A stretch of 64,000 nt of DNA from Acidobacteriota bacterium (lineage in GTDB: Bacteria; Acidobacteriota; Terriglobia; Terriglobales; Acidobacteriaceae), in assembly GCA_041690775.1 (NCBI GenBank), contig JBEPVW010000001.1:7343-71342 (forward strand). The letters are read 5' to 3'. Position numbers and translations under genes: made by a program. This document shows, piece after piece, positions 42,501 to 59,146 of the stretch. The notes beneath the pieces are model-generated. The model saw only the letters and a list, made by a program, of their open reading frames with translations, was not told the origin of the DNA and did no database searches. Numbering within the stretch: position 1 is the first letter of the stretch; the number at the start of each line of letters is the position of its first letter.

Positions 42501-43193
42501 CTAAGTGGACACTTCCGTGTGGGGATGAAGCTCGAATGAAATCGCTTTCATCGCGTGCTTCAAGACCTCCCGCTCGGCGTCCCGGATTGGCATCGGAGGA
42601 ATGAGTGTCATTCCCGCAAGATTGCAGAGAGCCAGATACGAGGCACGGTTGATGTGGAGAAAATCGAGAGGGTACTCAGGCTTTCGCGCACGGGCTTGAA
42701 CCGGGTCCGCATCCAGCAGGAAACTCACGTCCGGCTTCGGAGCGATCTTCAGAATCATCCGGGCATACGCGCGAGCGCCTGTAGTGTTCAGCGACAGGTT
42801 CGCGAGCTCGTCATAAGCATATCGATCGCAAATCACCACATCCGCTCCTGAACGCATCGCTTTCTTCACGACCCCCCGGAGCGAAAGGGCGTCGATCAGG
42901 TAAAGGCCTAGCCTCAGCTGGCTCATCGGCCAGGACTGCACGTTTTTGTCTCGCCGGTTGATCGGTGCTTCCGGCTTTCCAACACCCTTGTCCCCTTTAA
43001 ATAGGGTGTGGCCGGTCACTTCGCGGACACGAGTCAATCTCGCCACCTCGTCCCAAAAGGGAATCAGCCGGACCCGCAGGCCAGCCTCTTTCAGCCGGGC
43101 GCAAAGGGCTTCGATCTGAGTGCCTTTCCCGGCGCCATCAATGCCCGAAAAGCTTACAAGTTTGCAGCGCCGATTTTCCCGCTTCGTACCCAT
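42501..43193 (-). CDS. Thymidylate kinase-like P-loop protein (dTMP kinase family, atypical)
   Basis: Walker A FSGIDGAGKGTQ, a DRY-type motif (VICDRYAYDE) and a lid/C-terminal motif PDVSFLLDADPVQARAR. The nucleoside-binding stretch is divergent. ATG 43193 (TTG 43196 is an alternative). Confidence 0.6.
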   Translation of the reverse strand: MGTKRENRRCKLVSFSGIDGAGKGTQIEALCARLKEAGLRVRLIPFWDEVARLTRVREVTGHTLFKGDKGVGKPEAPINRRDKNVQSWPMSQLRLGLYLIDALSLRGVVKKAMRSGADVVICDRYAYDELANLSLNTTGARAYARMILKIAPKPDVSFLLDADPVQARARKPEYPLDFLHINRASYLALCNLAGMTLIPPMPIRDAEREVLKHAMKAISFELHPHTEVST

Positions 43194-43254
43194 CAATATG
43201 CTCCTACGTATGTTTTAGAGTGTTCTTCGCTATTTATAGGCATTACGGCCTCGA

Positions 43255-43752
43255 TTAACGTGGCCTGCTGGGGCTCGCGCTGGACAGTCCTACTACTGTT
43301 CCAATGGCAACGGCGGCTCCCAGAAGTATCCCCACCCGAATCAGAATGGAACGCTTTCGCCGCTGTTTTGCTGGAGCAATCACCGCCCCCGCGGGCCTCG
43401 ACGCCGCATTTCCTGTAGTTTTCTCATACGGTGCCGCAGCTGTGCCTACCGGGTTTGAGTTCTGCTGTTGTTCCGGAGCGGACTGAGAAGCTCCGGAATT
43501 CTTATTGGGATCGACAGCCTGCGGGTGTGTAGTGTCCGGCCCGTCAGGGGACACTTGAGATTGAGTCGCGTCCACGGCAGGCTTGTCGGTTGTGCTATCG
43601 GAGTTTGGGGGCTGTGCCTGTACGGAACCCGCCTGTTGGCCTGACCATGCTGGCTGCGGCCGGGTTGTGGCTGCTTCCCCGAACGGCAGAGCTACGATCG
43701 TCACAAGGCAGCTGGCGATGGTTCGCCGCAGCCAATACACCGAGATTCTCAT
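43255..43752 (-). CDS. Hypothetical exported Pro/Gln/Ala-rich protein with C-terminal TM anchor
   Basis: N-terminal signal (RRTIASCLVTIVALPFGEA), a disordered low-complexity middle, and a basic patch plus TM at the C-terminus (KQRRKRSILIRVGILLGAAVAIGTVVGL). Confidence 0.5.
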   Translation of the reverse strand: MRISVYWLRRTIASCLVTIVALPFGEAATTRPQPAWSGQQAGSVQAQPPNSDSTTDKPAVDATQSQVSPDGPDTTHPQAVDPNKNSGASQSAPEQQQNSNPVGTAAAPYEKTTGNAASRPAGAVIAPAKQRRKRSILIRVGILLGAAVAIGTVVGLSSASPSRPR

Positions 43753-43813
43753 TTGTTTCCCTCGAATCCGCTGACACTTTGCGCATGTCAGAATGAGACT
43801 ATCCCAAAACCGA

Positions 43814-44212
43814 TTACGCCGAGTCTCGCGGCCCGTGACCGGAACGCGCAGCCCCGGAGGACTGCGAAACTTTGCTTGCGTGAAGCTGGTGAAAGCTGTT
43901 CACCGCGGCAGCCGTCGTGTCATAGACATCAAAGAGACGGTTTGCTCCGGTTTGCTCCAGGATCGCCGCCGCTCCGGGAGGCAAGCTGGCAAGTTTGACA
44001 TTGCCATTGCGCTTCATCGCCTCCTCCAGACAACACAGCAACAGGTGGATAACTGACTTGTCCAGTTTGCGCAGATTCGAGCAGTCGAGCACCATGCGAG
44101 GACGGTCTACATCCATGGAGTTCTGGATCTCACGAAGAAATACGCGCTCCTGCTTTGGACTCAGCGTGGCCGGCAGCTGCTTCACCATCACATTACGCTC
44201 TCGAATTGTCAT
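43814..44212 (-). CDS. STAS domain protein (anti-sigma-factor-antagonist-like)
   Basis: 132 aa. ATG is preceded by GGAGAG. STAS-like pattern ..RMVLDCSNLRKLDKSVIHLLLCCLEEAMKRNGNVKLASLPPGAAAILEQTGANRLFDVYDT. Confidence 0.65.
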   Translation of the reverse strand: MTIRERNVMVKQLPATLSPKQERVFLREIQNSMDVDRPRMVLDCSNLRKLDKSVIHLLLCCLEEAMKRNGNVKLASLPPGAAAILEQTGANRLFDVYDTTAAAVNSFHQLHASKVSQSSGAARSGHGPRDSA

Positions 44213-44269: not shown

Positions 44270-46306
44270 CTATCCAGAACTCTCCAGGAGACGCGCGAGC
44301 TCAGCTTTGGGCCGGCGCACAGAGTTCTTCAGAACGTTTTTCCCGTATCGAAAGAGGGTTACGAAGTTCGTGTTGTACCAACAGCACTCCATCATCCTCG
44401 GCGAAAATCCGCACAAAAAACGAAGATTGTTCACTCTGCTGGGCGTTGCCAGCATGGCCGCCACCAACCGGTGATTCCCATCCAGAATCGTTAGACGTTC
44501 GCTCTCGTTCCTGCCGACGAGGATCACAGGGCCCAGGTCGCCAGCCTCCACGACAAGCCGATCGCGTATCTCGTCGATCTTAGAGTCAAATCGGCTGTCG
44601 ACAAAGTTTTGACCCTGGCGCATGGATTCGGCAACTTCGATGATCGACAACTTGCCCTTCGCGATTTTCCGCCACTGGGCCCTGGGGAAGACTCTGACCT
44701 GGTCGAGGTTCATTTCGCCCAATTCCATCTCATACCATTCCGTTCCAGAAGGAAGCTCGCTCCACAATGCAAGGTGTCGAATCGAGAAAAGAGCGCGCCG
44801 CTTTGCATTTTCACCGGTATTGTCGAGGTCAGGCGTGACTACAAGTTCATGCAGCCCCTCCTGATAACCGCGGAAGGCCGGATTGTGGAAATCACTCTTC
44901 AGGAATTCCGCGATCACCTCATCTTCCGCGACGGGCCGAATCACGCGAAGTGGCCGATACAGCTCAGGCACTTCAGCCTCGTCGGAGAAATTCAGCTGTT
45001 GAAATAAGAACGGCAATGCCACCAGGATGAATAAAACAACCATTAACACCAGTTGGACCAGGATGACCTGCCGCAAGGACGAATGGAAGAGGCAGATTCC
45101 CCCGATGACAACGCCGCTGAACGCCAACTGGATCAAGCTGGTGTTGGCGATCTTGTAAGACATCTCATACGCGATGACGACCGCGCTGAGCGAATAGATG
45201 ACAGTGGTGATGGCATACAGAGCCAGCAGATATGGAAGGCTGTACTTCCCGGCTATGGCAAATCTGGCTCCAAAAAAATCTGTCCAGAGCCAGGCGGGGG
45301 TCAGGCGTAGGGTGAGCGCCAGAGCGGAACCGATCCCCAACACCAGCAACAGGGAAGTTGCGATGACTGTCAGATCTTTCCGTTCCTCTTCGTGAGTGCC
45401 GGCAACGAGAGGAAACATACTGTTCACAATCGCCTGGGAGAAGGAAAAGATCACTCGGCCCACCATTGCCACGGCGGCATATAGTCCTGCCGCTTCTGGA
45501 ACAAAAAAATGTTTCACCAGTACGATGTCACAGTTGTTGATCAGCACCTGGCCGGAAAAAAAGACCATCGCCTGCGACATTTCGCGAAGTGCATGGGATC
45601 GATGAAGTGGGTTCGGAATGCGGCCCGCGACTGCGGGCACAATGGCAAAATAGGCCACCACCACAGCTGCGGAATTGGCCGCGATCACTCCCCGGACGCC
45701 GAAGCCCAGGAGGATCAGCACAAGCGAACCGCCGAGTCGAACCGCTCCCTCTGTGACGAGACTTGTGGCCAGACGACGGAAGCCGTAGGCGCCCTGCAGA
45801 TAGCCCCGCCGCGACCCCAGAGGAATATAGAAGGCGATCCCGACGGAGAGAAGGGCTACGAGAAGCGGATCCGAGAGATTCAAATAGTCCGAAATTGTTC
45901 TCTGAAACAGCAGCAATAGCAGTGCAGCGGAGATGCCGCATATCCAGGCGCCACCGTGGAACCCTCGATAGCCCGCATACTTTCCGTCCGCAGACTTCTG
46001 TTGCGCCACGATCTTGGCAGAAACGATCTGGAATGAGAGCGTTACCGCCGACAGCAAGGTGAGCAGAGTGTAAACGGCGGTAGCGTTGCCGAAGCCCTTT
46101 GGTCCGAGGAATCGCGCGACGGCGATGTTGTAGGCGAGGTTGATTGCGGTAGCGAGTCCGGAGCCGGAGAGCAATATGAAGCTCCCCGACAGGACGCGAG
46201 CCCGTAATGTTTTCGTCTTCAGAGTCGGACTGTTCGGCACGTTCTTGAGTCTCCAGCTTCCAAACGGGGAGAAATTTGATGAAGTCTGGCCTGCAAAGGT
46301 CAGCAA
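44270..46306 (-). CDS. MOP/Wzx-like polysaccharide-transporter-family membrane protein fused to a C-terminal ParB/Srx-like domain
   Basis: 678 aa. The first ~440 aa have ~12-14 TM helices with the flippase-family look (LLSGSGLATAINLAYNIAVARFLGPKGFG.., LYAAVAMVGRVIFSFSQAIVNSMFPLVAG). The cytosolic C-terminal ~230 aa end with GPVILVGRNESERLTILDGNHRLVAAM, which fits the P-x-I/V..x-L-x-DG-x-HR-x-x-A ParB/sulfiredoxin-fold signature (DGNHR = 44468..44482). Confidence 0.65.
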   Translation of the reverse strand: MLTFAGQTSSNFSPFGSWRLKNVPNSPTLKTKTLRARVLSGSFILLSGSGLATAINLAYNIAVARFLGPKGFGNATAVYTLLTLLSAVTLSFQIVSAKIVAQQKSADGKYAGYRGFHGGAWICGISAALLLLLFQRTISDYLNLSDPLLVALLSVGIAFYIPLGSRRGYLQGAYGFRRLATSLVTEGAVRLGGSLVLILLGFGVRGVIAANSAAVVVAYFAIVPAVAGRIPNPLHRSHALREMSQAMVFFSGQVLINNCDIVLVKHFFVPEAAGLYAAVAMVGRVIFSFSQAIVNSMFPLVAGTHEEERKDLTVIATSLLLVLGIGSALALTLRLTPAWLWTDFFGARFAIAGKYSLPYLLALYAITTVIYSLSAVVIAYEMSYKIANTSLIQLAFSGVVIGGICLFHSSLRQVILVQLVLMVVLFILVALPFLFQQLNFSDEAEVPELYRPLRVIRPVAEDEVIAEFLKSDFHNPAFRGYQEGLHELVVTPDLDNTGENAKRRALFSIRHLALWSELPSGTEWYEMELGEMNLDQVRVFPRAQWRKIAKGKLSIIEVAESMRQGQNFVDSRFDSKIDEIRDRLVVEAGDLGPVILVGRNESERLTILDGNHRLVAAMLATPSRVNNLRFLCGFSPRMMECCWYNTNFVTLFRYGKNVLKNSVRRPKAELARLLESSG

Positions 46307-46462
46307 GGGCTGCCGGAAAGGCTCAGGGGCGCGGTTCTAATCCGCAATAACTGTTCGATGCAAAAACCGGCATTCCGACTGCTCGAAATGGCCGGATGGC
46401 CCGATTATATCCTGCAATGGCGGTGACGCTGGTACTCTTGTTTGCTTGTAAAATGTATTCTT

Positions 46463-47464
46463 ATGCTGGTCCGCGCAAGCATTCTACTTTCTCTTCTCCT
46501 TTTCCCCCATGGCTGCTCCGGTCATGGATCTCCCCCGGCGGTACAGCTGAAATACAAGGCCGCTGGAAACTCTCCGGAAGTCCTGGCAGTGTACGAAGCA
46601 TGGTTCGGACATCCCAGCCACATCTCTGCCGCCTCTGTCGGCTATTCGTCGCATGATCCCGCTGTGATACGCCGACAGATGCAGGAAGCGAAAGCCATGG
46701 GAATTTCCGCGTTTGTGGTGGACTGGTATGGGGATCGTGAGCCCTTTATCGATCAAAGCTATGCCCTGATGCAGCCAATCGCCGCAAAAAGCAAGTTTCA
46801 TGTTGCCATGATGTACGACGAGCCCAAGGAAGAAGATGGCGCGACAGACGAAACTATCGCGGATTTGACGATGTTTCACGAAACGTATCTTACTCAGAAG
46901 GCGGCGGGACACAATGCGTACCTCACCTATCAGGGCCACCCCGTAATCTTCATCTTCCCCACCGGGGGCCATACCGACTGGAAACAGGTGAGGACAGTAG
47001 TCAACAAATGGAAACCTGCACCCTTGCTTATCCAGGAAAACCTGCCGGGGAAGTATGCGGAGTCGTTGGACGGATTTTATGCGTGGATTAACCCTGGGCC
47101 GAAGGGGTGGGCCGCAGACGGCAGCAACTGGGGAGACAAATATCTCAGCAATTTCTATCAGACGATGCTCTCGAAATATCCTGACAAGATAATCGTCGGC
47201 ACTGCGTGGGCCAGGTTCGACGACAGCAAAGCGTCCTGGAGCCTGAACCGGCACATGTCTGCGCGCTGCGGCCAGACCTACCAGGACACGTTCAACTTCT
47301 GGCGGAAGTATTTCCCTGCCGATCAGCCGATTCCCTTTGTCATGATCGCAACCTGGAACGATTACGAGGAGAGCTCGGCGATTGAACCGGGTATCCCCAC
47401 CTGCGGAAACGCATCGCCACAGCCGAAAGCGAAGAGCCAAGACACTAATTCGTCAGGAAAATAA
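46463..47464 (+). CDS. Secreted TIM-barrel-type glycoside hydrolase candidate (GH71/GH99-like)
   Basis: ORF 46442..47464. ATG 46463 gives the signal MLVRASILLSLLLFPHGC. Motifs VYEAWFGHP, GISAFVVDWYG and VMIATWNDYEESSAIEP resemble the WN(D/E)(Y/W)xE signature of the GH71/GH99-type clan. Family assignment is tentative. Confidence 0.5.
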   Translation: MLVRASILLSLLLFPHGCSGHGSPPAVQLKYKAAGNSPEVLAVYEAWFGHPSHISAASVGYSSHDPAVIRRQMQEAKAMGISAFVVDWYGDREPFIDQSYALMQPIAAKSKFHVAMMYDEPKEEDGATDETIADLTMFHETYLTQKAAGHNAYLTYQGHPVIFIFPTGGHTDWKQVRTVVNKWKPAPLLIQENLPGKYAESLDGFYAWINPGPKGWAADGSNWGDKYLSNFYQTMLSKYPDKIIVGTAWARFDDSKASWSLNRHMSARCGQTYQDTFNFWRKYFPADQPIPFVMIATWNDYEESSAIEPGIPTCGNASPQPKAKSQDTNSSGK

Positions 47465-47551: not shown

Positions 47552-48568
47552 CTAGCCGACTCGCATTTTGAATGCGATCACGGGCTCTGTCTCGTCGTAC
47601 TCGATGCTGGAATTTGCCTCTTTGTATTTGGTCCTGGATTGAGTGGCAACCATCGCCGGAGCACAATAGACATCATTGATGATGGACATGGGCCGGCTTC
47701 GCACCTCGTCATACACGCGTCCGACATATTCGCCCAGCACACCCAGGCTGAGGAGCAGGATACATCCCACCAGGAATATTGCGGCAGACACGCCGAATCC
47801 CACGGTATAGATTGGGCTCCTTGCGAAAATAGAGCACAGGGCGAGAACTCCCGCGATGCCCATCGAGACGCAGCATAACGCGAAGGACATGCGCAGCGGC
47901 TTATAGCTGAAGCTTGTAATCGCATCCATCGCATACTTGACTCGGCTGACGAAGGACAGTTTTCCTTCACCGGCAGCGCGATCCTGGCGATCGTAGTAAA
48001 CGACGGCATTCTTGTAACCTATCCAGGCTCGCAAACCGGGCAGGTAACGATTGCCTTCGCGCAAGCCATTGATAGAGTCGACGGCTTGACGATCCAACAG
48101 GCCGAAGATGCCGGCGTTCAAGGGAATCGGATAGTCGGAGAGCGCCGCCAGAACACGATAGAAAAGAGGAAAGAGTTTCGCCAGTATTTTGCGCCGTTCC
48201 TGGCGGCTCTTTCTCACTGCGACCACCACCTGCGCGCCGTCGCGCCACGTATCGATCAGCTGCGGCAGAACTTCCGGCGGATCCTGAAAATCTCCGTCCA
48301 TCAGAATCACTGCTTCGCCGCGCGCGGTCCGCAGGCCAGCGGAGATTGCCCCCATGTGTCCCCAGTTGCGTGACAGATCAACTACCACTACATGGGAATC
48401 GACAGCTTGCAAATCCCGCAGCAGTTCCAGGGAGGAATCTTTCGACCCATCGTTCACGTATACAACTTCCCACTCTTCGCCCACGTCGCTCAAGGCGGCG
48501 GCAACAGCCTCATTAAATGGGGAAATGAGCTCCTCTTCGTTGTAGATGGGTACGACTACAGAAATCAT
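47552..48568 (-). CDS. Polyprenyl-phosphate glycosyltransferase, GT2 (DPM1/GtrB/ArnC-like)
   Basis: MISVVVPIYNEEE.., YVNDGSKDSS, VILMDGDFQDPPE (DxD region), and two C-terminal TM helices (LRMSFALCCVSMGIAGVLAL; AAIFLVGCILLLSLGVLGEY). The RBS GAGGAGG lies 4 nt upstream. Confidence 0.8.
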   Translation of the reverse strand: MISVVVPIYNEEELISPFNEAVAAALSDVGEEWEVVYVNDGSKDSSLELLRDLQAVDSHVVVVDLSRNWGHMGAISAGLRTARGEAVILMDGDFQDPPEVLPQLIDTWRDGAQVVVAVRKSRQERRKILAKLFPLFYRVLAALSDYPIPLNAGIFGLLDRQAVDSINGLREGNRYLPGLRAWIGYKNAVVYYDRQDRAAGEGKLSFVSRVKYAMDAITSFSYKPLRMSFALCCVSMGIAGVLALCSIFARSPIYTVGFGVSAAIFLVGCILLLSLGVLGEYVGRVYDEVRSRPMSIINDVYCAPAMVATQSRTKYKEANSSIEYDETEPVIAFKMRVG

Positions 48569-48975
48569 CTTGCCTCCTCGAATAATTCACTTAATTCACT
48601 AAAAAAATTCACTACAAATAAACATTTGCCACTGCGTTATTTTGATGCGCCGAACTCTGTTTTCATTTGTCTGACATGTTCAGGGAATCTTGAATCATGC
48701 CGTCGCCCATCAACTATCCCGCAGCGGGAGAAGGGGGCGACCGCTTCTCCAGTTTGAGCACGTTCAGGTGCACGATCACCTTATTGCAATTGCAAGGCCA
48801 AACTGCATTGATTTCAGAAGATGGGGATTCATCCGGCGTTCACATTGCATTCAGTAGGATGCCGAGATCTACTGATTCGTTTTATGTGCAGCGTTTTGCA
48901 TATGCAGTGGGCGAGTGGAGCAGAATTTACTCAAGGATTGGGGCACGCATGCCTTCGATTTGCGCAGGATCTGTT

Positions 48976-49476
48976 CTATTCGGGCTGTGCCTGGAAAACC
49001 CGAACTCTCCATCGCAGCTCGGCCGGGGTCATGACGACGATGTAGCGTGCGCGTACCCGCTGTGTTGTCAGGACTTTGTCCTTGCTGAGGACCTGCTCAT
49101 CGTATTCAACGTTGTCGATCAGCTGAATCGATAACCCTTCCGGCGAATAGAAAACGATCTGGAGATTGTGCGCACGATCCCGGTAACGGGTGTGAATCCC
49201 CAGCTTGGCCTGCTCGTGAACGGTATCGGCCAGTTTATCTCGTGCAGTTCCCACAAAATCCGGATCGAGCAGATCGGCACGATTTTGCTCAAGCGCTGCC
49301 CTCATACTTTGCCAGGATTGTAAATAGTCGCGAATCACCGCCGTCCCGGTCTGTTCCTGGAGCGGACGGGGCCCATGCAGGTTCGGCGGCTCCACATGGA
49401 CGGCCATCTGATCCGCCTGGAGAGCGAATGGCATAGCCAGGATCGCGAAAATGACCAGCAGGGATTTGATCGTCAT
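48976..49476 (-). CDS. Hypothetical exported protein
   Basis: ATG 49476 overlaps the upstream stop (ATGA). Signal peptide MTIKSLLVIFAILAMPFALQA. At ~140 aa mature it may be NTF2/SnoaL-like. No motif was recognised. Confidence 0.5.
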   Translation of the reverse strand: MTIKSLLVIFAILAMPFALQADQMAVHVEPPNLHGPRPLQEQTGTAVIRDYLQSWQSMRAALEQNRADLLDPDFVGTARDKLADTVHEQAKLGIHTRYRDRAHNLQIVFYSPEGLSIQLIDNVEYDEQVLSKDKVLTTQRVRARYIVVMTPAELRWRVRVFQAQPE

Positions 49477-50342
49477 TTTTGCCAATGAATCTCATTTCCC
49501 AGTACAACGCCGCTCGCCACGGATATTTTTGCTCCGTTGTTGGCGGGCATTTCCACCTGTGCAATTCCCCGTTTGAGAGGAACGTCCACCGTGGTTTGAG
49601 TGTTGTTATAGTTTTCGATGAATGTCACGATCGTACCGTCGGGCACGGCATTGCCGCTACAATCGCGTACCGGATCCGTCTTCAACTCAAGCTGCCGGCC
49701 CGACTGCTGGGCCGTCATTTTTAACCCGCATGGATCGCCCGGAACCTGCTCTATGACGCGTGTGCTGGAAACTCCATCCACTTGGGCCAGGAATTTGGCA
49801 ATGCCTTCTTTGTCGGTAGAGTCCATTTCGGTCGAGGCGACCCCATTCTGGGTGACGACTGTGCGCTTCTGCACAGGTCCGGATGGATTCGACAGCTCAA
49901 AGGAAACCGGCGTGGCCGCCGTGATCAGATTGCGATAAGCATCGAAGACGTACACGGTGCCGCTGATGCCGTTATGCCGAGCGACAGGAAGGCGGGAAGG
50001 TTTCGCAAAAAAAGCCACGTCAGCGGGCCGCTTTGCAGGCACAACATTGAATGAGCCATGGTCCGTGGAGGATGCTCCTACCAGAATGGCCAGATAATGG
50101 CCGGCATTGTAAAGGGATCCAGCGGGGAAGTACGTCGCTTGTCCGGGCTCCACATCGCGTTGCAGCGCGTGTCCTGGACCGACGATGTACAGAACTGCTT
50201 TCCCGCTCCCCGTGCTCTGAATTGAGAACGCGCTGCCGGCTTCCACGGTCGCGGGCAAGCTCATGCTCCCACTTTGCGCGCTAGCAATTTGTATGGTTGC
50301 GAGAGCCATGCCGCCAATCACAAAAGCGGACCTGAACCTCAC
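49473..50342 (-). CDS. Hypothetical exported protein with Ig-like (Big-like) beta-sandwich repeats
   Basis: The GTG start overlaps the upstream stop (GTGA). Signal MRFRSAFVIGGMALATIQIASAQ. Segments such as GISGTVYVFDAYRNLITAATPVSFELS and NAVPDGTIVTFIENYNN resemble invasin/Big_1-type domains. Confidence 0.5.
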   Translation of the reverse strand: MRFRSAFVIGGMALATIQIASAQSGSMSLPATVEAGSAFSIQSTGSGKAVLYIVGPGHALQRDVEPGQATYFPAGSLYNAGHYLAILVGASSTDHGSFNVVPAKRPADVAFFAKPSRLPVARHNGISGTVYVFDAYRNLITAATPVSFELSNPSGPVQKRTVVTQNGVASTEMDSTDKEGIAKFLAQVDGVSSTRVIEQVPGDPCGLKMTAQQSGRQLELKTDPVRDCSGNAVPDGTIVTFIENYNNTQTTVDVPLKRGIAQVEMPANNGAKISVASGVVLGNEIHWQK

Positions 50343-51490: not shown

Positions 51491-53253
51491 GACGTCGCCC
51501 TCCCGGGCACAAGACTTTCCTGCGAGACGAAAGCATCGTCATCGCTGTCTTCGCGCCGCCTCCCGTCTGGAATGAGAACGACCAATATCGCAAGAAGGCT
51601 GCTGCCGAACGGGAATATCCCCCACATAATGCCCTGCCAGCGGGGAGGCATTTGCGGCGCATTCAACGGCATCGCCGGGGGCACTCCATCTTTGCCCCAT
51701 ACCGCGATGGTCTTGTTTTCCAGGCTATCCACCTGCCGCCAGCCGGCAAAGGTCAGCAGCGGGTCATAATAGGGGTCGCGCACGACGACCCATTTCAGTC
51801 CGTATCGGTCTGCATGGCGCAAAATTGCGCGTAGCGCATCCAGGCCGGCTTCGCCGAAATATTTTGAACTGGAAAGCGCGCCCGCGCCGTTCTTCGTCAG
51901 CTCGGGCAGCATGCGCCCGGAGTTCCACACGCCATCGACGCTGCCGGCGTCCGTTAGAACTGCCAGCCGGGAGATTTTGTCGCCAAATCCCAGGGTTACA
52001 TACCGGTACTTGTCGTGGCCATCGCGATTGAGCCATGTCGCAACCGAGTCCACCTCGATGTTTGCGCCTTCTGCCGGGCGAATCGTCACCCACGACACTG
52101 CAAATGCGCAGGTAAGAGCCGCCGCGACACCCAACCCGATAGCTGCCCGCATCCGATATCGATCGATCAGTTCCGTGGCCAGAAGTCCCACAAAAGGCAG
52201 CGCGAGCAAAGTGGCCCAATAGGTGAAGCGTTCCATGGTCAGCACTTCAAAAGCGCGGCCCAAAAGCAGATGGCCAACGGGGGTTGTCCCGCCCAGTCCA
52301 ATCAGAGCCGCCACCCAGAAGCCAAGCAGCAATGGCCGAAGCCGAACGACCCTCGACCCACGAAGCACGATGAACGGCAACGCCAGTATCATCGCTCCGT
52401 AGGGAGCTAGGAAGTAATTCAGCCCAAATATTGGACTCAGGATGTAATTCGACCGGCTGGGATGCGGAATTGGAGTCTGCGTGACGGGATAGTGAATCAG
52501 TGCAATCCAGAACGGAAGAAGCACGATTGCAATCGCAATGCTCACCACCACGACGATACTGACGGTGCGAAGGACGAAGGCCGGCGTCGAGACCCGCTCA
52601 CCATCCTGACGGTCGAGGATCACCAGCGCCAGGACGGGAACTGCAAAGAAAAACGAGCCGAATAGCAACGTCGCATGGTGTGCGGCCGCGGCGGCGGCAA
52701 ACAGAACGGCCGCTTTGAGGAACGATCGCCACTTGCCGTATCGAACCCACTCGAACAGATAGGGCAGGGCGTTTAAATAGATTGGCGCCGCGGATGTGGT
52801 GCCCAACTGTCCCGCGGAATAAACCAAAAAGCTCTCCGAGCCGAGAAAAACGCTTGCCAGGGCTGCGAACGATGCGGCGCGGGGACTCACCCAAAGCCGG
52901 GAAAACCGATAAACACCCAATACCAGCAGTAAGATAGCAGCCAGCTGCACGACCATATAGGCCATATCCAGCCCGGTGAGCCGAGAAATCACCGCTACCC
53001 ATTGTTGCGGCAACGGAGGATAGGTAGCCTGCGAAAAACCCGCATACCACTTTGGATTCCAGGGATTGAACCAATGATGAACATAGTGGGACGCGAAGAA
53101 AATATGGAAGTTTGCGTCGTACGACTTGAGCGGCAGCCTCATTAGCATCAGCGGCAGATGAACCGCTAAAGCCGCCAAGAGTATGAGGCTCATGGGTATA
53201 GGCCGCGTTAAGGGGGCGACGGCCGAATCAGGTCTATTCAAAGTGCCTCTCAA
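51487..53253 (-). CDS. Multi-pass integral membrane protein, GT-C-fold glycosyltransferase candidate
   Basis: 588 aa with ~11-13 TM helices. The first extracytoplasmic loop has the acidic/His motif KSYDANFHIFFASHYVHHW. A ~150-aa soluble domain sits between late TMs (NRDGHDKYRYVTLGFGD..YGLKWVVVRDPYYD). TTG start 53253 (ATG 53193 is an alternative). No family was firmly recognised. Confidence 0.5.
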   Translation of the reverse strand: MRGTLNRPDSAVAPLTRPIPMSLILLAALAVHLPLMLMRLPLKSYDANFHIFFASHYVHHWFNPWNPKWYAGFSQATYPPLPQQWVAVISRLTGLDMAYMVVQLAAILLLVLGVYRFSRLWVSPRAASFAALASVFLGSESFLVYSAGQLGTTSAAPIYLNALPYLFEWVRYGKWRSFLKAAVLFAAAAAAHHATLLFGSFFFAVPVLALVILDRQDGERVSTPAFVLRTVSIVVVVSIAIAIVLLPFWIALIHYPVTQTPIPHPSRSNYILSPIFGLNYFLAPYGAMILALPFIVLRGSRVVRLRPLLLGFWVAALIGLGGTTPVGHLLLGRAFEVLTMERFTYWATLLALPFVGLLATELIDRYRMRAAIGLGVAAALTCAFAVSWVTIRPAEGANIEVDSVATWLNRDGHDKYRYVTLGFGDKISRLAVLTDAGSVDGVWNSGRMLPELTKNGAGALSSSKYFGEAGLDALRAILRHADRYGLKWVVVRDPYYDPLLTFAGWRQVDSLENKTIAVWGKDGVPPAMPLNAPQMPPRWQGIMWGIFPFGSSLLAILVVLIPDGRRREDSDDDAFVSQESLVPGRATS

Positions 53254-53373: not shown

Positions 53374-56300
53374 TTGTACGCCGGTGACCTATTGATTGCT
53401 ACGCATGGATTTCTGAAGACTGCCTGTGTGTCCATGCTGGTTGTCGCGCTTGCCTACTCTCTTCAGGCGCAGACCTATCAGGTCGCGCCGGATTCTTCCG
53501 CAAAGCCTCCGACCCAGGCTGGTAAAAAGACCGGGAAAAAGCCTCCGGCCCCAACGGGCAAACAGTCCGGTAAACAGTCCGGTAACCCGGCGGCTTCCGG
53601 CCAATCGCTGGGCTTTGGATCAAATATTCAAAACGCGCGTCTCGGTCGCGCCGCGGAATTAGCACTGCAGCACGGTGATCGCGCGCAGGCGCTTAGCTAT
53701 GCGCAACGGGCCGCGGAAGCTGCCCCCAATGATCCCCGGCTCTGGTTCCTGGTTGGCTATGCAGCGCGGCTCAACGGCAGGTACCCGCTATCGATCGACG
53801 CCTACAATCGAGGCCTTCGCCTGAGCCCGTCCGCGGTGGAAGGACTTTCCGGCCTTGCCCAGACCTATAGTTTGACGGGCCGAACCGACGAGGCCGAAGG
53901 TCTCCTCAAGCAGGTGATTTCGTCGAACCCAAAGCGCAGCAGCGATGCGTTGCTCCTCGGAAACCTATACATGAAATCGGGGAACTATACCGAGGCGCTC
54001 AACTGGCTCAGCAGAGCGGAACGAATACGACCCGACGCTCGTTCGGAGTTGCTGCTGGCGATCTCTTATCAACGCCTGAAGCGGATGGATATGGCAAGCC
54101 GCTATCTCGAGATGGCCCGGCGGCGCGCGCCGAACAACCCCGACGTCCAGAGATCGCTGGCAGGCTACTACCGGGAGATTGGAAACTATCCGGCGGCAAT
54201 TGCCGCGCTTAAATCAATCCGCAACCCGAGACCGGATGTAAAGGCTGAACTTGCCTATACTTACCAGCTCGACGGTAAGCTGGATGAAACCGCCCGGCTT
54301 TACGCCCAAGCAGCCAATGCCGCACCCAGAAATCTCAGCTTGCAGCTTTCCGCAGCGCAGGCCGCAGTGGCGGTCGGATCGTTCGACCACGCGAATTCGT
54401 TTCTCCAGCGTGCCGCAGGGCTCAACGCCAACTATTATCGGCTGCACGCAATCCGCGGACAGATTGCGCACCTTCAAGAACATGATAGCGATGCCGTTCA
54501 GGAATACACCGCCGCCCTGTCTCATCTGCCTGCAAGTCCAGCCGAGGGACCGCTGTACGGCATTCAAATCCACATGGACCTCATGAGCCTTTATCGCAAT
54601 TTGGGCAACGAAGACGCTTCCCGCCAGCAACTCCAGACAGCACAGACAGAAATCGGCGCGCTCGACGAGCAGGGGCCCGGCAGAACACCGTTTCTGCGTC
54701 TGAGGGCCCTGATCAAAATGAATCTGGGCAACCTCGACAGTGCGCTCAAGGATATGAACGAAGCGCTCGCGCTAAGTCCGCACGACCCCAACAGTCTGCA
54801 ACTCGACGGCGATCTGTTGATGAAATTCGGACGTACGGAAGATGCGATCGCGGTTTACAAGCGGGTCCTCGCAATTGATTCGCGAAATCGATTTGCGCTG
54901 ACTTCGCTCGGATACGCATCCCGCGCCGTGGGTCGTGACCAGGATGCGAGGAGGTATTTCGAGCGATTGGCAAAAAATTATCCGACGTTATATGTGCCAT
55001 ATCTCGCGCTGGGGGACATGTACGCTGCCCACCGCGACTTCGCAAAAGCAGAGGCTTCCTATACAAAGGCTTACAAACTGGCCCCTCGGAACACCTTGAT
55101 TGTGGCCGGAGCGATGAATGCCGCAATTGAGGCGCAGAAGTTGGACCTCGCGGCTGTCTGGTTGAGCCGCGCCACGGCCAAAATGCAGCAGGAACCGCAA
55201 ATGCTTGCACAAAGAGAGAGATTCCTGCGCCTCAAGGGGGAATATCTGCAATCCGCCGAAGTTGGCCGGGAAGCCATCAAGGTGCTGCCGCAAAACAGGG
55301 ATGTCGTTGTTTATCTAGGCTATGACCTGCTCCAACTGGAGAAATATGACGAATTGCAGCAGTTGACCTCGAAATACGACAAGGCTTTCCCGAAAGACTC
55401 TGATATTCCACTTTTGGCCGGTTACGTGCATAAGCATAGCGGTGAGCTGGATAAGGCGCTCCAGGACTTTACTGAGGCACTGAAGCGCAACCCCGATGTA
55501 GTTACGGCGCACGTGAACCGCGGATATGTCTTGAATGACCTTCACCAACCCGAGGCAGCAGCAGCCGACTTCGAAGCCGCCCTGAAGCGGGAGCCGAAGA
55601 ATGGCCAGGCGCATCTGGGACTGGCATACGCGGACCTAAATCTGAATCGGCTGCAGGCAGCCGTACGCCAATCGCAATTGGCGGAACGGGACAGCGGCGA
55701 CTCGGAATTCGTACATCTGATTCGCGCGACCGCTTACGGGCGAGAGGGTCTGCTGACGAAAGAGATCGCGGAGTATCGCGCCGCCTTGAAATTCGCTCCC
55801 AACGATGGAGCGCTCTACCTTGGGCTCGGGAACGCGTTATTTTCCGGGCGACGCTATCGCGAAGCGGTGGACGCGCTGCAGATGGCCGTAAAACTCTCTC
55901 CCGACAATGCCGCCGTTTACGCTTTGCTCGCACGCGCCTATGCAAACCTGGGAGACCGGGGGCAAACACTGCACTATGTTCAGTTGGCAGAGCAGTCTGC
56001 CCAAATGACGCCCGCAGATAAAGCCAACACAGCCGCGGGACTCAGCGAAGTATATATCGCGACTGGGGAAGCCCTGAGCACGCTCGGAGACCAGAAAGCG
56101 GCGATGGAGCGCTTCGGAAAAGCGCTTACAGCGCCGGACAGCAACCGCATCAGCGTGCGGCTTGCCATCGCTCACCTGATGGCGCAGCAGGAGAATTACG
56201 ACGGCGCGCAGCGTCAGATTGCGCTGGCCCTGATGGAAGGCGAGGCAGGAGAAACGGCACCTCCGACCGGAAGCCAATACATTCAGGCAGCAGACATATT

Positions 56301-57678
56301 CCGGCAGATGCATGAGTATCAACTGTCACAGACCTACATCGCGCGTGCCAAGGCCGCGGGCGCATCGGATATAGTCGTGCGGGTCGGCCTGGCCAACAAC
56401 TACCTGGCATTGGGAGATACGGCCCGAGCCGCAGCGGAACTGGCGGCCGTCAGCAATGAAGCGGAGAATGCGTCCAACTACCAATATCTGCTGGTTCAGG
56501 CCAGCGTCTACCAGCAGGAACATCATGGTGCCCTGGCGCTCACGGCCCTGGCGCAGGCCGCATCTGTCGCCGGCGATGATCAGGCGGTTCAGCAGGACCT
56601 TCTCCGGACGGCGGCAAACGAGGGGTATCGAATCAATTCCAAGGTGAGTGTGCTGGGCAATTTCACCTTGCAGCCAATCTTTGAACCTACGACCGTGTAT
56701 GTTCTGGATTCCAAGCTCGATGGGCCCGTGCCGGTGCCTCCGACCGACCCGTCTCTTCTTCCTCCGCCACGTTCGTCCCTCTTCACTCAGGGAACCGGCG
56801 CATACCATTTGCATATTCCGCATTTCGTACCCGCCAGCGGCCTTTTCCAGGTCAGCAATGCACGCGGAACGATCTCGGTACCCGCTACCAGTTCCATCGT
56901 GCACCGTAGTACGACCGATACCTCGCTCAACTTCGGGCTGAATCCCACGGTTCATCTGGGCAGGAACTCGCTGACCTTCAACGGCGGCGTTCAGGGAACG
57001 ATCCGCCGTGATTCTCTGTCCCCGAAGCAATTGAATCAGAATCTTTTTCGAGCGTTTGGGTATGTATCCACGAATTCGTTCTTCAATGCGATTTCGATGA
57101 GCGGGCATCTAATCTGGGAAGCCGGCCCGTTTACTGAAAGCAATCTGCATTCTCGGGCGTTGGCAGCCGGCGTTGATTTTCGCGTGGGACAGCCATGGGG
57201 AAAGACCGCTCTCGTAACTGGATGGGGATCGATCGACCAGCAGTTCACGCCTGTGGGGATCGAAGACTACTACACATCTGCCTATGTTGGCCTAACCCAT
57301 CGGTTCTCGGACCGGTTGGACGTTGAGGCTCTTGCAGGAGATCTCCGGGCGTGGAGAGTCGTTGGAGCGCGGTCCGGAATTGCGCAGGCCCTTCGCCCGG
57401 CCGGAACCGTTAACTTCAGCCCAAGGCGCAATTGGCAACTTCAGGCGTCCAGCGCATACTTCAACAACAGAAGCTTCCATCCCTACGACGCGATCCAGAA
57501 TAGCTTTTCTGCCTCGTATACAAGGCCCTTCAACCGCACATTGAATGACGAATCCGGAGAAATCCACGTCCAATATCCGATTCGCTTCTCGGCGGGTTTT
57601 CAACAGGAGAGCTTCTACAACTTTAGTAACGGCCACAGCCAACAGTTCAGACCGTATGTGAGCATCACACTCTTTTGA
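53374..57678 (+). CDS. Giant TPR-repeat protein with C-terminal outer-membrane beta-barrel-like domain (PelB/BcsC/PgaA-type architecture)
   Basis: 1434 aa with an N-terminal signal-like segment (the exact start is uncertain: TTG 53374, TTG 53389 or ATG 53434). Roughly 1000 aa of TPR-type repeats follow (recurrent A..Y..AL...P.N motifs). The last ~400 aa have an alternating hydrophobic pattern rich in G/S/N/Y/F and end ..RPYVSITLF (terminal Phe). Confidence 0.7.
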   Translation: MYAGDLLIATHGFLKTACVSMLVVALAYSLQAQTYQVAPDSSAKPPTQAGKKTGKKPPAPTGKQSGKQSGNPAASGQSLGFGSNIQNARLGRAAELALQHGDRAQALSYAQRAAEAAPNDPRLWFLVGYAARLNGRYPLSIDAYNRGLRLSPSAVEGLSGLAQTYSLTGRTDEAEGLLKQVISSNPKRSSDALLLGNLYMKSGNYTEALNWLSRAERIRPDARSELLLAISYQRLKRMDMASRYLEMARRRAPNNPDVQRSLAGYYREIGNYPAAIAALKSIRNPRPDVKAELAYTYQLDGKLDETARLYAQAANAAPRNLSLQLSAAQAAVAVGSFDHANSFLQRAAGLNANYYRLHAIRGQIAHLQEHDSDAVQEYTAALSHLPASPAEGPLYGIQIHMDLMSLYRNLGNEDASRQQLQTAQTEIGALDEQGPGRTPFLRLRALIKMNLGNLDSALKDMNEALALSPHDPNSLQLDGDLLMKFGRTEDAIAVYKRVLAIDSRNRFALTSLGYASRAVGRDQDARRYFERLAKNYPTLYVPYLALGDMYAAHRDFAKAEASYTKAYKLAPRNTLIVAGAMNAAIEAQKLDLAAVWLSRATAKMQQEPQMLAQRERFLRLKGEYLQSAEVGREAIKVLPQNRDVVVYLGYDLLQLEKYDELQQLTSKYDKAFPKDSDIPLLAGYVHKHSGELDKALQDFTEALKRNPDVVTAHVNRGYVLNDLHQPEAAAADFEAALKREPKNGQAHLGLAYADLNLNRLQAAVRQSQLAERDSGDSEFVHLIRATAYGREGLLTKEIAEYRAALKFAPNDGALYLGLGNALFSGRRYREAVDALQMAVKLSPDNAAVYALLARAYANLGDRGQTLHYVQLAEQSAQMTPADKANTAAGLSEVYIATGEALSTLGDQKAAMERFGKALTAPDSNRISVRLAIAHLMAQQENYDGAQRQIALALMEGEAGETAPPTGSQYIQAADIFRQMHEYQLSQTYIARAKAAGASDIVVRVGLANNYLALGDTARAAAELAAVSNEAENASNYQYLLVQASVYQQEHHGALALTALAQAASVAGDDQAVQQDLLRTAANEGYRINSKVSVLGNFTLQPIFEPTTVYVLDSKLDGPVPVPPTDPSLLPPPRSSLFTQGTGAYHLHIPHFVPASGLFQVSNARGTISVPATSSIVHRSTTDTSLNFGLNPTVHLGRNSLTFNGGVQGTIRRDSLSPKQLNQNLFRAFGYVSTNSFFNAISMSGHLIWEAGPFTESNLHSRALAAGVDFRVGQPWGKTALVTGWGSIDQQFTPVGIEDYYTSAYVGLTHRFSDRLDVEALAGDLRAWRVVGARSGIAQALRPAGTVNFSPRRNWQLQASSAYFNNRSFHPYDAIQNSFSASYTRPFNRTLNDESGEIHVQYPIRFSAGFQQESFYNFSNGHSQQFRPYVSITLF

Positions 57679-57685
57679 GGCACGC

Positions 57686-59146
57686 ATGATGAAAATCTGT
57701 CTAGTCGCGACGTTCCCCCCCAGCGGACGGCAGCTGAATGAGTACGCGTTCCATATTGCGCGCGAACTGCAGCGCAATCCAGACATAAGTCTCACCATTC
57801 TCGCTGACGAGCTGACCGACTATGAGTTTGCCACCGACGCGAACGGCGACACGTTGAACGCACAGCAACAGCCGGAACTGCCCGGTTTCAACGTGATCCG
57901 CTGCTGGAAGTTTGGCAGCCTGGCAAATCCAGTGCGCCTGTTGAATGCCATTCGGAAACTGGAACCCGACGTGGTGTGGTTCAATCTAATCTTTTCGAGC
58001 TTTGCAACTCCTGAGAACCCGGTAGCCGCCTTTGCTGGGCTTTCCGCGACGGCTCTCACCCGGGCCTCCGGCTATTACACGCATATCACACTGCACCACA
58101 TCATCGAACATGTCGACTTCGACGCTGCTGGAGTCAAGCAGGGATGGATGTTGCGAATCGGCAGCCACGTGGCCACCCGGGCCCTGCTGCAGGCGCATTC
58201 CGTGTCTGTCCTGCTTTCCGCTTATCGGCGCACTCTAATGACGAAGTATTCCGCTCAGAATGTTCTGTTGGGCACCCACGGAACGTTCGCACCAACCCCC
58301 ACTCCACCGGATTTTTCGAAGCGCGGCAATCCCGAACTTCGCATTCTGGCGATCGGGCATTGGGGCACCTACAAACGGCTGGAGACGCTGATGGAGGCTT
58401 TTCCGGCTGTTCTGAAAAAAATCCCCAACGCCAGGCTGATCGTCGCGGGCGCCAATCATCACACCAAAGCCGGATATTGGGAATCGATACGCGAAGCGCA
58501 GCCCGCAGGCCTGCCGATCGAGTTCCGCGGGTATGTCCCGGAAGATGATATTCCAGAGCTTTTTCAGACAACTTCAATCCTCGTTCTACCCTACGACTCC
58601 GCTACTGGATCGAGCGGCCCGGCCCATCAGGCGTGCGAGTTTGGAGTTCCCATCGTCTGCGCCGACATCGCCGATCTTCGGGAAATGGCGACGGACGAAG
58701 ACATGGCCGCCAGGTTCTACAAGACAGGCGACGCGGCCGGTCTCGCCGAGCAACTGATTGCCATTCTTGAGTCTCCCGAGCTGCAGCGCAGCATGTCGGA
58801 ACACAACTTTGCGGCGGGGATCCAGATGACCATGGACAGCGTTGTCCGCAACTATCTTCGCTGGTTCGCACTCCATAAGTGCAAAAGGGAGATACGCACT
58901 CCAGGAATTTTTTCAAGGGGCCGCGGTATGTGGCCGCGTTCTCTATTTTCACGACCCGGCCAGGTGTTGCATCCGGGTCCTTTCATGGATGGTAAGAGTG
59001 GCGTGGAGAAGAGCCACCGCGTCGAACCGGTTGGGATCAACGCTCCGTCTATCGATTTGCCGAATTCCATTGCCTGGCGCAAATCGGAAACGTCCAAAAA
59101 TCATCCGGATGGCGATAGGTATCAGGCCAGCCCGGCTCTCGATTAA
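57686..59146 (+). CDS. Glycosyltransferase family 4 (GT-B, group 1)
   Basis: Starts 8 nt after the upstream stop (the GAGG RBS overlaps that stop). MMKICLVATFPP.. The C-terminal Rossmann half has GYVPEDDIPELFQTTSILVLPY..SGPAHQACEFGVPIV (EX7E-type region). A ~100-aa C-terminal extension has no recognisable features. Confidence 0.8.
   Translation: MMKICLVATFPPSGRQLNEYAFHIARELQRNPDISLTILADELTDYEFATDANGDTLNAQQQPELPGFNVIRCWKFGSLANPVRLLNAIRKLEPDVVWFNLIFSSFATPENPVAAFAGLSATALTRASGYYTHITLHHIIEHVDFDAAGVKQGWMLRIGSHVATRALLQAHSVSVLLSAYRRTLMTKYSAQNVLLGTHGTFAPTPTPPDFSKRGNPELRILAIGHWGTYKRLETLMEAFPAVLKKIPNARLIVAGANHHTKAGYWESIREAQPAGLPIEFRGYVPEDDIPELFQTTSILVLPYDSATGSSGPAHQACEFGVPIVCADIADLREMATDEDMAARFYKTGDAAGLAEQLIAILESPELQRSMSEHNFAAGIQMTMDSVVRNYLRWFALHKCKREIRTPGIFSRGRGMWPRSLFSRPGQVLHPGPFMDGKSGVEKSHRVEPVGINAPSIDLPNSIAWRKSETSKNHPDGDRYQASPALD

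Follow-up and report, generated by a model that had tools for sequence, protein, structure and literature searches.

A conserved twelve-gene locus of Acidobacteriaceae that may build a glycan on a lipid carrier and export it through a TPR-porin

The subject of this report is a group of twelve genes in the genome of an Acidobacteriota bacterium of the family Acidobacteriaceae (assembly GCA_041690775.1, contig JBEPVW010000001.1, positions 7,343 to 71,342). The whole of this stretch, 64,000 nucleotides (nt) long, is referred to as the window, and the locus under study occupies its positions 42.5–59.1 kb. Comparison with related loci indicates that the twelve genes form one functionally linked system. 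It is proposed, with about even confidence, that this system assembles a glycan, either envelope-bound or secreted, on a polyprenyl-phosphate carrier and sends it out via a tetratricopeptide-repeat (TPR) porin of the PgaA/PelB type. The Acidobacteriaceae, noted for their capsules and plentiful exopolysaccharide, count among the most abundant bacteria of soil, and to our knowledge their envelope-glycan machinery is essentially uncharacterised. If the proposal is true, the locus joins assembly by a lipid carrier and a GT-C-like glycosyltransferase (GT), a Wzx-type flippase and a synthase-type TPR-porin, modules that usually belong to different pathway classes. The locus is assembled from known part families and possibly represents a new pathway class. 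Its gene associations suggest a new regulatory link, the control of a glycan flippase by STAS or partner-switching proteins, and its gene fusions point to concrete protein–protein contacts. No published description of the locus or its parts was found in the literature searched, whose coverage is incomplete, and a prior description may exist.

Gene content of the locus

The twelve genes are, in the order of their window coordinates (lengths in amino acids, aa):

42501..43196, minus strand: dTMP-kinase-like P-loop protein, 231 aa (PF02223, 42.9 bits)
43255..43752, minus strand: LC165, a low-complexity Pro/Gln/Ser-rich protein with an N-terminal hydrophobic segment and a C-terminal transmembrane helix, without a family match
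43814..44212, minus strand: STAS-domain protein, 132 aa (Pfam STAS/STAS_2, 38 bits)
44270..46306, minus strand: MOP/Wzx-type flippase (about residues 23–437) joined to a cytoplasmic domain (residues 436–678, encoded at 44270–45001), 678 aa in all
46442..47464, plus strand: exported GH71/GH99-like glycoside hydrolase (GH)
47552..48568, minus strand: polyprenyl-phosphate GT2 of the GtrB/ArnC/PgfS type, 338 aa, with two C-terminal transmembrane helices
48976..49485, minus strand: p169, a small exported protein with a signal peptide
49473..50342, minus strand: p289, an exported protein with a signal peptide and weak Ig-like (Invasin_D3/Big_1) similarity, overlapping its upstream neighbour by GTGA
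50339..51490, minus strand: p383, a membrane-anchored periplasmic protein of 383 aa, with a GTGA overlap with the GT-C-like gene
51487..53253, minus strand: GT-C-like polytopic membrane protein, 588 aa, with at least nine hydrophobic segments in a hydropathy scan
53374..57678, plus strand: TPR-barrel protein, the candidate outer-membrane exporter, 1434 aa, with an N-terminal signal-like hydrophobic segment, TPRs and a C-terminal barrel
57686..59146, plus strand: GT4, a cytoplasmic glycosyltransferase of GT-B fold, 486 aa, without a transmembrane segment

An earlier reading of this DNA, the original prediction, had been made from the letters of the window, and its gene coordinates are all reproduced by the open reading frames (ORFs) called here; for the hydrolase it had used an alternative start, the ATG at 46463. 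The overlaps GTGA, GTGA and ATGA that it reported for the minus-strand operon 53253..48976 can be read directly in the sequence, that between p289 and p169 holding if p169 starts at the ATG at 49476, and the ATG of the GT4 gene lies 7 nt after the stop codon of the TPR-barrel gene. Pfam and NCBIfam scans find its parts list mostly right: the GT4, the polyprenyl-phosphate GT2 of DPM1/GtrB type, the secreted glycoside hydrolase, the MOP/Wzx-like protein, the STAS protein and the dTMP-kinase-like P-loop protein all stand on the evidence given for each below. Its statement that the window lacks Wzy, Wza/Wzc, a polysaccharide ABC exporter and a BcsA-type synthase is borne out among the 36 ORFs scanned, which comprise the twelve locus genes and most other long ORFs of the window, and where the sole ABC-type part is a MacB/FtsX permease (23319..24575) beside an efflux cluster.

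The p169 and GT2 genes are separated by a non-coding gap of 407 bp (48569–48975) in which Rfam has no match; an Rfam scan of 40–64 kb at E ≤ 0.1 likewise returned no riboswitch or other RNA. It is at this position, 3' of p169, that the GT2 gene is missing from 8 of 56 related loci.

Conservation and rearrangement of the locus

A genome scan with one genome per species returned 583 matching stretches, so that the locus is widely conserved in the Acidobacteriaceae. The best 80 of the 583 were examined; all belong to Acidobacteriaceae/Terriglobales and encode GT-C-like proteins 71–83% identical to that of the window. Gene order was counted over the 56 Acidobacteriaceae loci with full 10-kb flanks, and is the same throughout: the TPR-barrel gene, followed by the GT4 gene, diverges from an operon of the GT-C-like, p383, p289, p169 and usually GT2 genes, which is followed by the oppositely oriented hydrolase gene and then by the MOP, STAS, LC165 and dTMP-kinase-like genes. 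Exceptions concern p289 and p169 (each in 55/56), GT2 (48/56) and LC165 (49/56), and one locus, L080, is rearranged. The median identity of the locus proteins over the 56 loci is 48% in LC165 and otherwise ranges from 54% to 76%, the highest value being that of the GT-C-like protein, which is the most conserved member. Outside the locus conservation decays, the phospholipase C (PLC) gene on one side being kept in 44/56 and the LamG/Big genes on the other in 24–26/56.

Alloacidobacterium dinghuense, a cultured member of the family, is among the carriers of the locus. In two Acidobacteriaceae metagenome-assembled genomes (MAGs) two copies of the GT-C locus lie on different contigs, namely MFD02671.bin.3.52 (L009 and L024) and MFD05513.bin.1.269 (L045 and L053), reflecting either paralogous systems or contamination of the bins.

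A metagenome scan, made with an alignment of four relatives 40–56% identical to the window protein, returned 80 loci whose GT-C-like proteins have a median identity of 55% to that of the window. The TPR-barrel gene is found in all 35 of these loci with enough upstream sequence, and, as in all 56 Acidobacteriaceae loci, is divergent from the GT-C operon; p383, p289 and p169 are present in 44/44 and the MOP gene in 28/29. The other genes are reshuffled. Arrangement A (12 loci) has TPR-barrel, GT4, STAS, MOP, ParB-like and LC165 genes in this order, and carries 3' of p169 a second, smaller GT-C-like gene and a short GT2, neither of which the window has there. In L100, for instance, the second GT-C-like gene lies at 14475–15929 on the plus strand (PMT_2, 23 bits) and the short GT2, without transmembrane segments, at 16261–17031 on the same strand. 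In arrangement B (17 loci) the TPR-barrel gene is joined by a MOP::ParB-like gene, and the hydrolase gene stands on the same strand directly after p169 in 12/12.

Beyond these, parts of the locus recur in more distant company (identity to the window GT-C-like protein in brackets):

L082/L083 and L086 (37%): GT4, MOP, GT2, STAS, SpoIIE, RsbW-like, STAS and response-regulator genes and, further on, a GT-C::p383 fusion
L084 (42%): MOP and STAS, GT4 and GT2, and a divergent GT-C fusion
P0368 context (40%): dTMP-kinase-like protein, proteins of 211 and 249 aa, MOP and STAS, divergent from GT-C and proteins of 364, 286 and 176 aa
L085 (30%): a GH5-like hydrolase; a TPR protein (779 aa, β-rich C-terminus ending LFW), GT4 and GT-C; and a GT2
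L087 (38%): a GT2; a GT-C::p383 fusion, a 401-aa protein and a GH5/GH2_C protein

On the evidence of its DapB, which falls into one cluster with that of Lapillicoccus jejuensis at ≥90% identity, L086 is assigned to the Actinomycetota. The source of L085 is a low-GC diderm that carries a lipopolysaccharide heptosyltransferase, and L082 is unplaced. GT4 and MOP proteins of the distant loci align with those of the window over nearly their full length (E 1e-55 to 1e-99 and 1e-29 to 1e-37, respectively). The core that recurs across phyla consists of the GT-C-like protein (with p383), the GT4, a polyprenyl-phosphate-type GT2, the Wzx-type MOP protein and STAS; diderms have the TPR-porin and a hydrolase in addition. 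None of the loci examined was found to encode a processive synthase, a Wzy or an initiating phosphoglycosyltransferase.

Background synteny is to be expected among 80 genome loci as close as these, and the twelve genes might be no system at all, that is, unrelated neighbouring units held together by shared ancestry in one family. This is judged extremely improbable. The flanks are less well kept than the locus, the genes are reordered yet remain together at about 55% identity, and a low-GC diderm and at least one actinobacterial relative have the core too. There are in addition three independent fusions, GT-C::p383, GT-C::GT4 (P0362) and MOP::STAS (P0352), and because the genes are thus reshuffled yet clustered, and fused, their association points to functional linkage rather than inherited synteny. 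Chance juxtaposition was discarded on the same grounds. The co-localisation in relatives that the original prediction called for is found in all 56 close loci and extends to the reshuffled arrangements.

The outer-membrane exporter and the GT4

The TPR-barrel protein matches many TPR families of Pfam, and these matches extend to at least residue 1074. Its C-terminal 360 aa (residues 1075–1434, encoded at 56596–57678 and ending ...ITLF) have no useful Pfam match at E ≤ 10, and were modelled by AlphaFold 2 (AF2) from a 43-sequence alignment. The model has about 16 antiparallel strands, with a predicted local distance difference test score (pLDDT) of 86.4 and a predicted TM-score of 0.79. Compared with the PDB by Foldseek it gave 126 matches at E ≤ 1e-3, and every one of the 50 best listed is an outer-membrane barrel. 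The highest TM-score is that of the PgaA porin 4y25 (0.53/0.64, root-mean-square deviation 6.9), and there are many matches to AlgE as well. The model is thus in line with the membrane barrel that had been predicted for this C-terminus, and the protein as modelled has the exporter architecture of PgaA, BcsC, PelB and AlgK–AlgE. No PelB-specific sequence match was found, so that the likeness to PelB is one of architecture alone, and a weak TPR_Slam match (22.8 bits) lies far under the cut-off of 35.2.

The GT4 matches Glycos_transf_1 (64.9 bits) and Glyco_trans_1_4 (67.1 bits), and its closest relatives in the PDB are PimA mannosyltransferases (E 7e-4). Full-length orthologues with 31–44% identity adjoin the GT-C gene in L082, L084, L085 and L086, and in P0362/L081 a full-length orthologue is fused to the C-terminus of the GT-C-like protein.

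The GT-C-like protein and its operon partners

Positively charged at its N-terminus, the GT-C-like protein has a soluble stretch at about residues 390–540 and a last transmembrane segment that is followed by an Arg-rich tail. A nearly invariant Asp46...His50 stands directly after the first transmembrane segment, and the motif S-Y-D-x-N-F-H is invariant in close homologues. Matches to PF10131, all below threshold, occur in the window protein (19.4 bits over 343 residues), in 6/26 close homologues (best E 3.5e-6) and in 3/9 distant members, among which P0363 reaches 25.8 bits against a cut-off of 26.4. HHpred groups PF10131 with the STT3, PMT and Alg9-type families of GT-C enzymes (PMC7801869). 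A search of 1.84 billion cluster representatives with the window protein returned 840 representatives (50% clustering) at E ≤ 1e-3, 370 of them at E ≤ 1e-30. The family, with these 840 clusters at 50% identity, has no Pfam model and no studied member.

p383 shows weak FxLYD/DUF3426 matches and no sequence relative in the PDB, and its sequence suggests an N-terminal NTF2-like region followed by two β-sandwich repeats. It is present in all 56 Acidobacteriaceae loci, and in 52 of 102 full-length distant representatives of the GT-C family it is fused to the GT-C part in proteins of about 1000 aa. To judge from these fusions, p383 is a domain of the GT-C enzyme that is encoded here by a gene of its own, and not an independent exported protein. 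The original prediction had counted three exported proteins in this operon; this stands for p289 and p169, which carry signal peptides, and does not stand for p383. A weak homologue of p289 follows the GT-C::p383 gene in the actinobacterial L086, and p169 has no match in Pfam (E ≤ 10) or the PDB.

The GT2 and the glycoside hydrolase

The GT2 matches PF00535 (104 bits) and, over residues 2–300, the NCBIfam models of PgfS (248 bits) and ArnC (148 bits). Both of the latter scores are under their equivalog cut-offs, which assigns the type of the enzyme and not its substrate. The transmembrane segments lie at residues 229–247 and 260–278. PgaC is matched over about the first 105 residues only, and with its type and its two helices the protein does not look like a processive synthase. 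The distant loci have shorter GT2s of 245–287 aa without transmembrane segments, with matches over the whole catalytic domain that include AglJ, PpgS and ArnC (NCBIfam).

The hydrolase scores 44.6 bits with the GH71 model of Pfam, against a cut-off of 34, and 31.8 bits with GH99. Its only relative in the PDB is the GH99 endo-α-mannosidase 4acz (E 7e-5, residues 68–319). It is present in all 56 Acidobacteriaceae loci, and its place is taken by GH5-like hydrolases in L085 and L087.

The flippase and its putative regulators

The MOP protein of the window has no Pfam match of its own, no PelG match even at E ≤ 10 and no PDB match by sequence search. Homologues 68–80% identical to it carry PF01943, some of them PF13440 as well, and are named oligosaccharide flippase in their source, and orthologues are found in L082, L084 and L086. 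The AF2 model of its C-terminal 243-residue domain has a pLDDT of 85.3, and a DGNHR motif and two cysteines are invariant. This domain has no match in Pfam (E ≤ 10) or in profile searches of the PDB. Of its 17 top Foldseek matches 13 have the ParB/Srx fold (KorB, Noc, sulfiredoxin, SbnI, Spo0J, SerK and ParB), at E ≥ 0.28 and probability ≤ 0.6, none of them significant, so that its ParB/Srx-like nature is plausible but unproven. In other lineages the ParB-like domain has an ORF to itself (about 245 aa) directly downstream of the MOP gene, and therefore the fusion is regarded as lineage-specific.

The STAS and MOP genes are neighbours in L084 and in the P0368 context, as they are in the window, and belong to one operon in L082, in L086 and in arrangement A. 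P0352 (811 aa, from a JGI metagenome) combines the MOP/ParB-like protein and STAS in a single predicted protein, which may be a true fusion or may result from reading through one gene into its neighbour. The STAS proteins of L082/L083 and L086, the high-GC relatives, have the DSxG motif and are accompanied by SpoIIE and RsbW-like genes. The alignment shows the serine of this motif replaced in Acidobacteriaceae (D-K/Q/N/R), and no cognate STAS kinase or phosphatase is present in the window locus; the Acidobacteriaceae have lost the STAS serine and carry the ParB/Srx-like domain and the P-loop kinase-like protein instead. The partner-switching cassette of the relatives (L082 4637–7500, L086 4742–7610) lies between the GT2 and GT-C::p383 genes and consists of STAS, a SpoIIE phosphatase, an RsbW-like kinase, a second STAS and a response regulator.

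The dTMP-kinase-like protein scores 46.7 bits with TIGR00041 against an equivalog cut-off of 83, is present in 56/56 loci and has a faint Thymidylate_kin counterpart at the same position in the P0368 context. Such a low score, about half the cut-off, makes it improbable that this is the housekeeping Tmk, and the linkage of the gene to the locus was a second ground for rejecting that identity.

Comparison with known glycan pathways

The systems with which the locus invites comparison differ from it in several ways. The Pel systems serving as reference are PelA–G of Pseudomonas aeruginosa and the Gram-positive pelDEADAFG (PMC7112168; PMC12141448). Common to Pel and the window locus are a TPR protein with a C-terminal porin, a cytoplasmic GT4, a MOP-superfamily protein, a periplasmic hydrolase and cytoplasmic regulatory domains. 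Pel lacks the GT-C-like enzyme, the p383 domain and the polyprenyl-phosphate GT2, all of which are core members in the window locus. Conversely, the Pfam and NCBIfam scans gave no match of the locus products to the PelA, PelF and PelG family models; the GT4 matches generic GT1/GT4 models only, no Pel-named NCBIfam model appears, and the GH71/99-like hydrolase has no deacetylase domain, unlike PelA. As originally predicted, the twelve products include no candidate for PelC, PelD or PelE, with no GGDEF, GAF, CE4 or PelC-like match. The Pel-like logic ascribed to the locus in the same prediction is borne out in part, namely in the outer-membrane architecture and in the complement of GT4, MOP protein and hydrolase. 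Pel does not appear to be the organising logic of the locus, because PelF, PelG and PelA matches, a deacetylase and a receptor for cyclic di-GMP (c-di-GMP) are all missing and the MOP protein is of the Wzx type.

The exporters PgaA, AlgK/AlgE, BcsC and NfrA have the same architecture of TPRs and β-barrel (PDB 4y25; PMC8669469). Relative to their systems, the window locus is without the cognate c-di-GMP-controlled GT2 synthase (PgaC, BcsA, Alg8 or NfrB), its TPR region is much longer (about 1000 aa) and its barrel belongs to no sequence family. Three-component periplasmic glycosylation systems (GtrA/GtrB/Gtr*, ArnC/ArnEF/ArnT and GT136) pair a GT2 with a GT-C-type transferase that takes the lipid-linked sugar outside the cytoplasm, a pairing which the locus would share through its putative GT-C enzyme; their flippases are small, and the glycan that they modify comes from elsewhere (PMC11127046). 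The window locus instead has a Wzx-type MOP protein with regulatory domains in the flippase position, adds a GT4 coupled to the GT-C-like protein, a hydrolase and an outer-membrane exporter, and has no O-antigen or capsule locus attached as a source of the acceptor. No small flippase of the GtrA or ArnE/F type was matched among the twelve products, every locus ORF of at least 90 aa being assigned. That polyprenyl-phosphate-sugar routes can feed polymer synthesis is known from the GtrA/GtrB-dependent homopolysaccharide of Lactobacillus johnsonii (PMC7117936).

Wzx/Wzy pathways share with the locus a MOP/Wzx-type flippase (PF01943) and cytoplasmic GT-A and GT-B enzymes. Bac_transf, Glycos_transf_4, Wzy_C, Wzz and Poly_export were matched neither in the 36 window ORFs nor in the Pfam-annotated distant loci. 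An ordinary Wzx/Wzy cluster was rejected, since the initiating enzyme, Wzy, PCP (Wzc) and OPX (Wza) are absent wherever examined, and the original prediction had likewise seen no canonical Wzy/Wza/Wzc partners. The N-glycosylation pathway of Haloferax volcanii, with AglJ and AglD (GT2), AglR (MOP flippase) and AglS (Dol-P-Man transferase), resembles the locus in combining a polyprenyl- or dolichyl-monophosphate GT2, a Wzx-like flippase and a polytopic transferase that acts outside the cytoplasm. It differs in being archaeal, in making a protein-linked glycan and in having neither an outer-membrane exporter nor STAS control. AglJ is one of the top NCBIfam matches of the distant-locus GT2s.

A proposed pathway and its alternatives

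A lipid-carrier route is proposed because the loci have no initiating enzyme, Wzy or synthase, because their GT2s include AglJ/PpgS/ArnC-like enzymes and because in one relative a GT4 is fused at the GT-C tail. At the cytoplasmic face the GT2, whose family is established, would charge undecaprenyl phosphate with a sugar. The GT4, which its associations place at the cytoplasmic C-terminus of the GT-C-like protein, would be tethered there and extend or prime the lipid-linked intermediate. The Wzx-type MOP protein would then flip this intermediate, perhaps gated by the associated ParB/Srx-like domain, by STAS and possibly by the P-loop kinase-like protein; in the high-GC relatives (L082/L083 and the actinobacterial L086) gating may fall to the complete STAS/SpoIIE/RsbW partner-switching module. 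Transfer or polymerisation of the sugar in the periplasm would be the work of the GT-C-like enzyme, together with its p383 domain and the partners p289 and p169, and the GH71/99-like hydrolase might trim or release the chain in the manner of BcsZ, PelA and PslG. Finally the TPR scaffold and the modelled 16-strand barrel would carry the polymer across the outer membrane. The topology of the GT-C-like protein agrees with this scheme in its positive N-terminus, the conserved Asp after the first transmembrane segment and the Arg-rich tail to which the GT4 is fused in P0362. The original prediction had considered a hybrid with a lipid-linked periplasmic glycosylation arm, which fits the evidence; since the GT-C-like protein is conserved across phyla and fused to partners, this arm is better taken as the core, and both arms as one pathway. 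More tentatively, the system may be a new class in which an uncharacterised GT-C family with p383 and a tethered GT4 acts as a periplasmic polymerase on polyprenyl-monophosphate donors, a Wzx-type flippase is gated by STAS or partner switching and the product leaves diderms through a synthase-type TPR-porin, the whole being ancient and shared by Acidobacteriota, Actinomycetota and other phyla.

Several points weigh against the lipid-carrier proposal. The substrates of known MOP flippases are pyrophosphate-linked oligosaccharides, and the locus has no enzyme to produce them. The GT2 is absent from eight of the 56 Acidobacteriaceae loci, and GT4 and STAS are not found within 10 kb in the 17 loci of arrangement B; because of these absences the three steps would be either dispensable or encoded elsewhere. 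The window GT2 aligns with those of the distant loci over the N-terminal 94–138 residues only, and for this reason they are maybe not orthologues. The GT-C fold of the 51487..53253 product, argued from sub-threshold PF10131 matches, is unproven: the protein has no match in the PDB by single sequence or by a 26-sequence profile, and hhalign of a 37-sequence profile with Escherichia coli ArnT gave a probability of 0.3%, a comparison that is uninformative because the template was a single sequence. The order of the steps, and the role of the GT-C-like protein as polymerase or as decorating transferase, are inferred.

An alternative that keeps most of the parts is a Pel-like synthase system, in which the GT4 would be a processive polymerase like PelF, the MOP protein and its partners would move free polymer like PelG, the hydrolase and the TPR-porin would act as PelA and PelB, and the GT2 and GT-C-like protein would decorate the polymer in the periplasm. 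Four Pel-like parts are indeed linked, the TPR-barrel and GT4 genes being adjacent with the gap of 7 nt and arrangement A having TPR-barrel, GT4, STAS and MOP genes consecutively on one strand; the barrel is PgaA/AlgE-like, no lipid-carrier initiating phosphoglycosyltransferase is present, and PelD could be replaced by the cytoplasmic regulatory domains that the MOP protein or its neighbours carry. This alternative is nevertheless considered unlikely, given the missing PelF, PelG and PelA family matches, the PF01943/PF13440 (Wzx-type) matches of the MOP homologues and the want of a PelC/D/E candidate or deacetylase. A merely decorating arm is also hard to square with the GT-C-like protein being the most conserved and most widespread member, with the GT4 fused to it in P0362, and arrangement-B loci keep TPR-barrel, MOP and GT-C genes yet have no GT4 within 10 kb.

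The product might instead be a glycosylated protein or lipoprotein displayed at the surface, a PMT-like GT-C enzyme O-glycosylating p289, p169 and others with a polyprenyl-phosphate sugar made by the GT2, and the TPR-barrel protein taking these glycoproteins to the surface as Slam does. The best NCBIfam match of the GT2, PgfS, belongs to the Pgf protein-glycosylation system of Streptococcus, PF10131 groups with PMT and STT3, exported Ig-like proteins are translationally coupled to the GT-C-like protein and there is the TPR_Slam match. This match is far under its cut-off, however, while the best TM-score of the barrel is that of a polysaccharide porin, p383 appears as an enzyme domain and not a substrate, and a glycoside hydrolase recurs, whether GH71/99-like here or GH5-like in L085 and L087; such a pathway is therefore regarded as distinctly unlikely. 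Little credence is likewise given to a lipoglycan of the mycobacterial kind (phosphatidylinositol mannosides, lipomannan and lipoarabinomannan), in which the GT4 would make the primer (PimA), the MOP protein flip it, GT-C enzymes extend it with the polyprenyl-phosphate sugar of the GT2 (Ppm1, MptA/B) and the hydrolase free the glycan for export. It draws on the PimA proteins as best PDB relatives of the GT4, on the endo-α-mannosidase as the only PDB relative of the hydrolase, on the core in at least one actinobacterial relative and on the second GT-C-like gene (PMT_2, weak) that follows the operon in arrangement A. These similarities are all weak (E 1e-3 to 1e-5) and mute on the acceptor, no acyltransferase or inositol-related gene lies in the locus, and the lipoglycan would be a special case of the lipid-carrier route rather than a true alternative to it.

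Neighbouring genes of the window

Directly adjoining the locus are three tandem paralogues on the plus strand (38973–39998, 40183–41226 and 41435–42460) that encode secreted proteins of 341–347 aa, 55–58% identical to each other, with weak Big_7 and LamG/ConA-like lectin-glucanase matches. Homologues of these flank the locus in about 25 of the 56 related loci, and they could be glycan-binding or matrix proteins. Two proteins of the phosphoesterase/phospholipase-C family are encoded on the plus strand at 36030–37772 and 59514–63080. The latter, of 1188 aa, has an N-terminal extension of about 640 aa without a family match, and its gene flanks the GT4 gene in 44/56 related loci.

The first 42 kb of the window further hold GH20 genes, a TonB-type receptor, RND efflux genes, and heme and glycine-cleavage genes. 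The GH20 hexosaminidase paralogues (148–2523, minus strand, and 6806–9145, plus strand) lie around a CarboxypepD_reg and OMP_b-brl_4 TonB-type receptor (2546–5920, minus strand), and this cluster looks like a glycan-uptake locus unrelated to the envelope-glycan locus.

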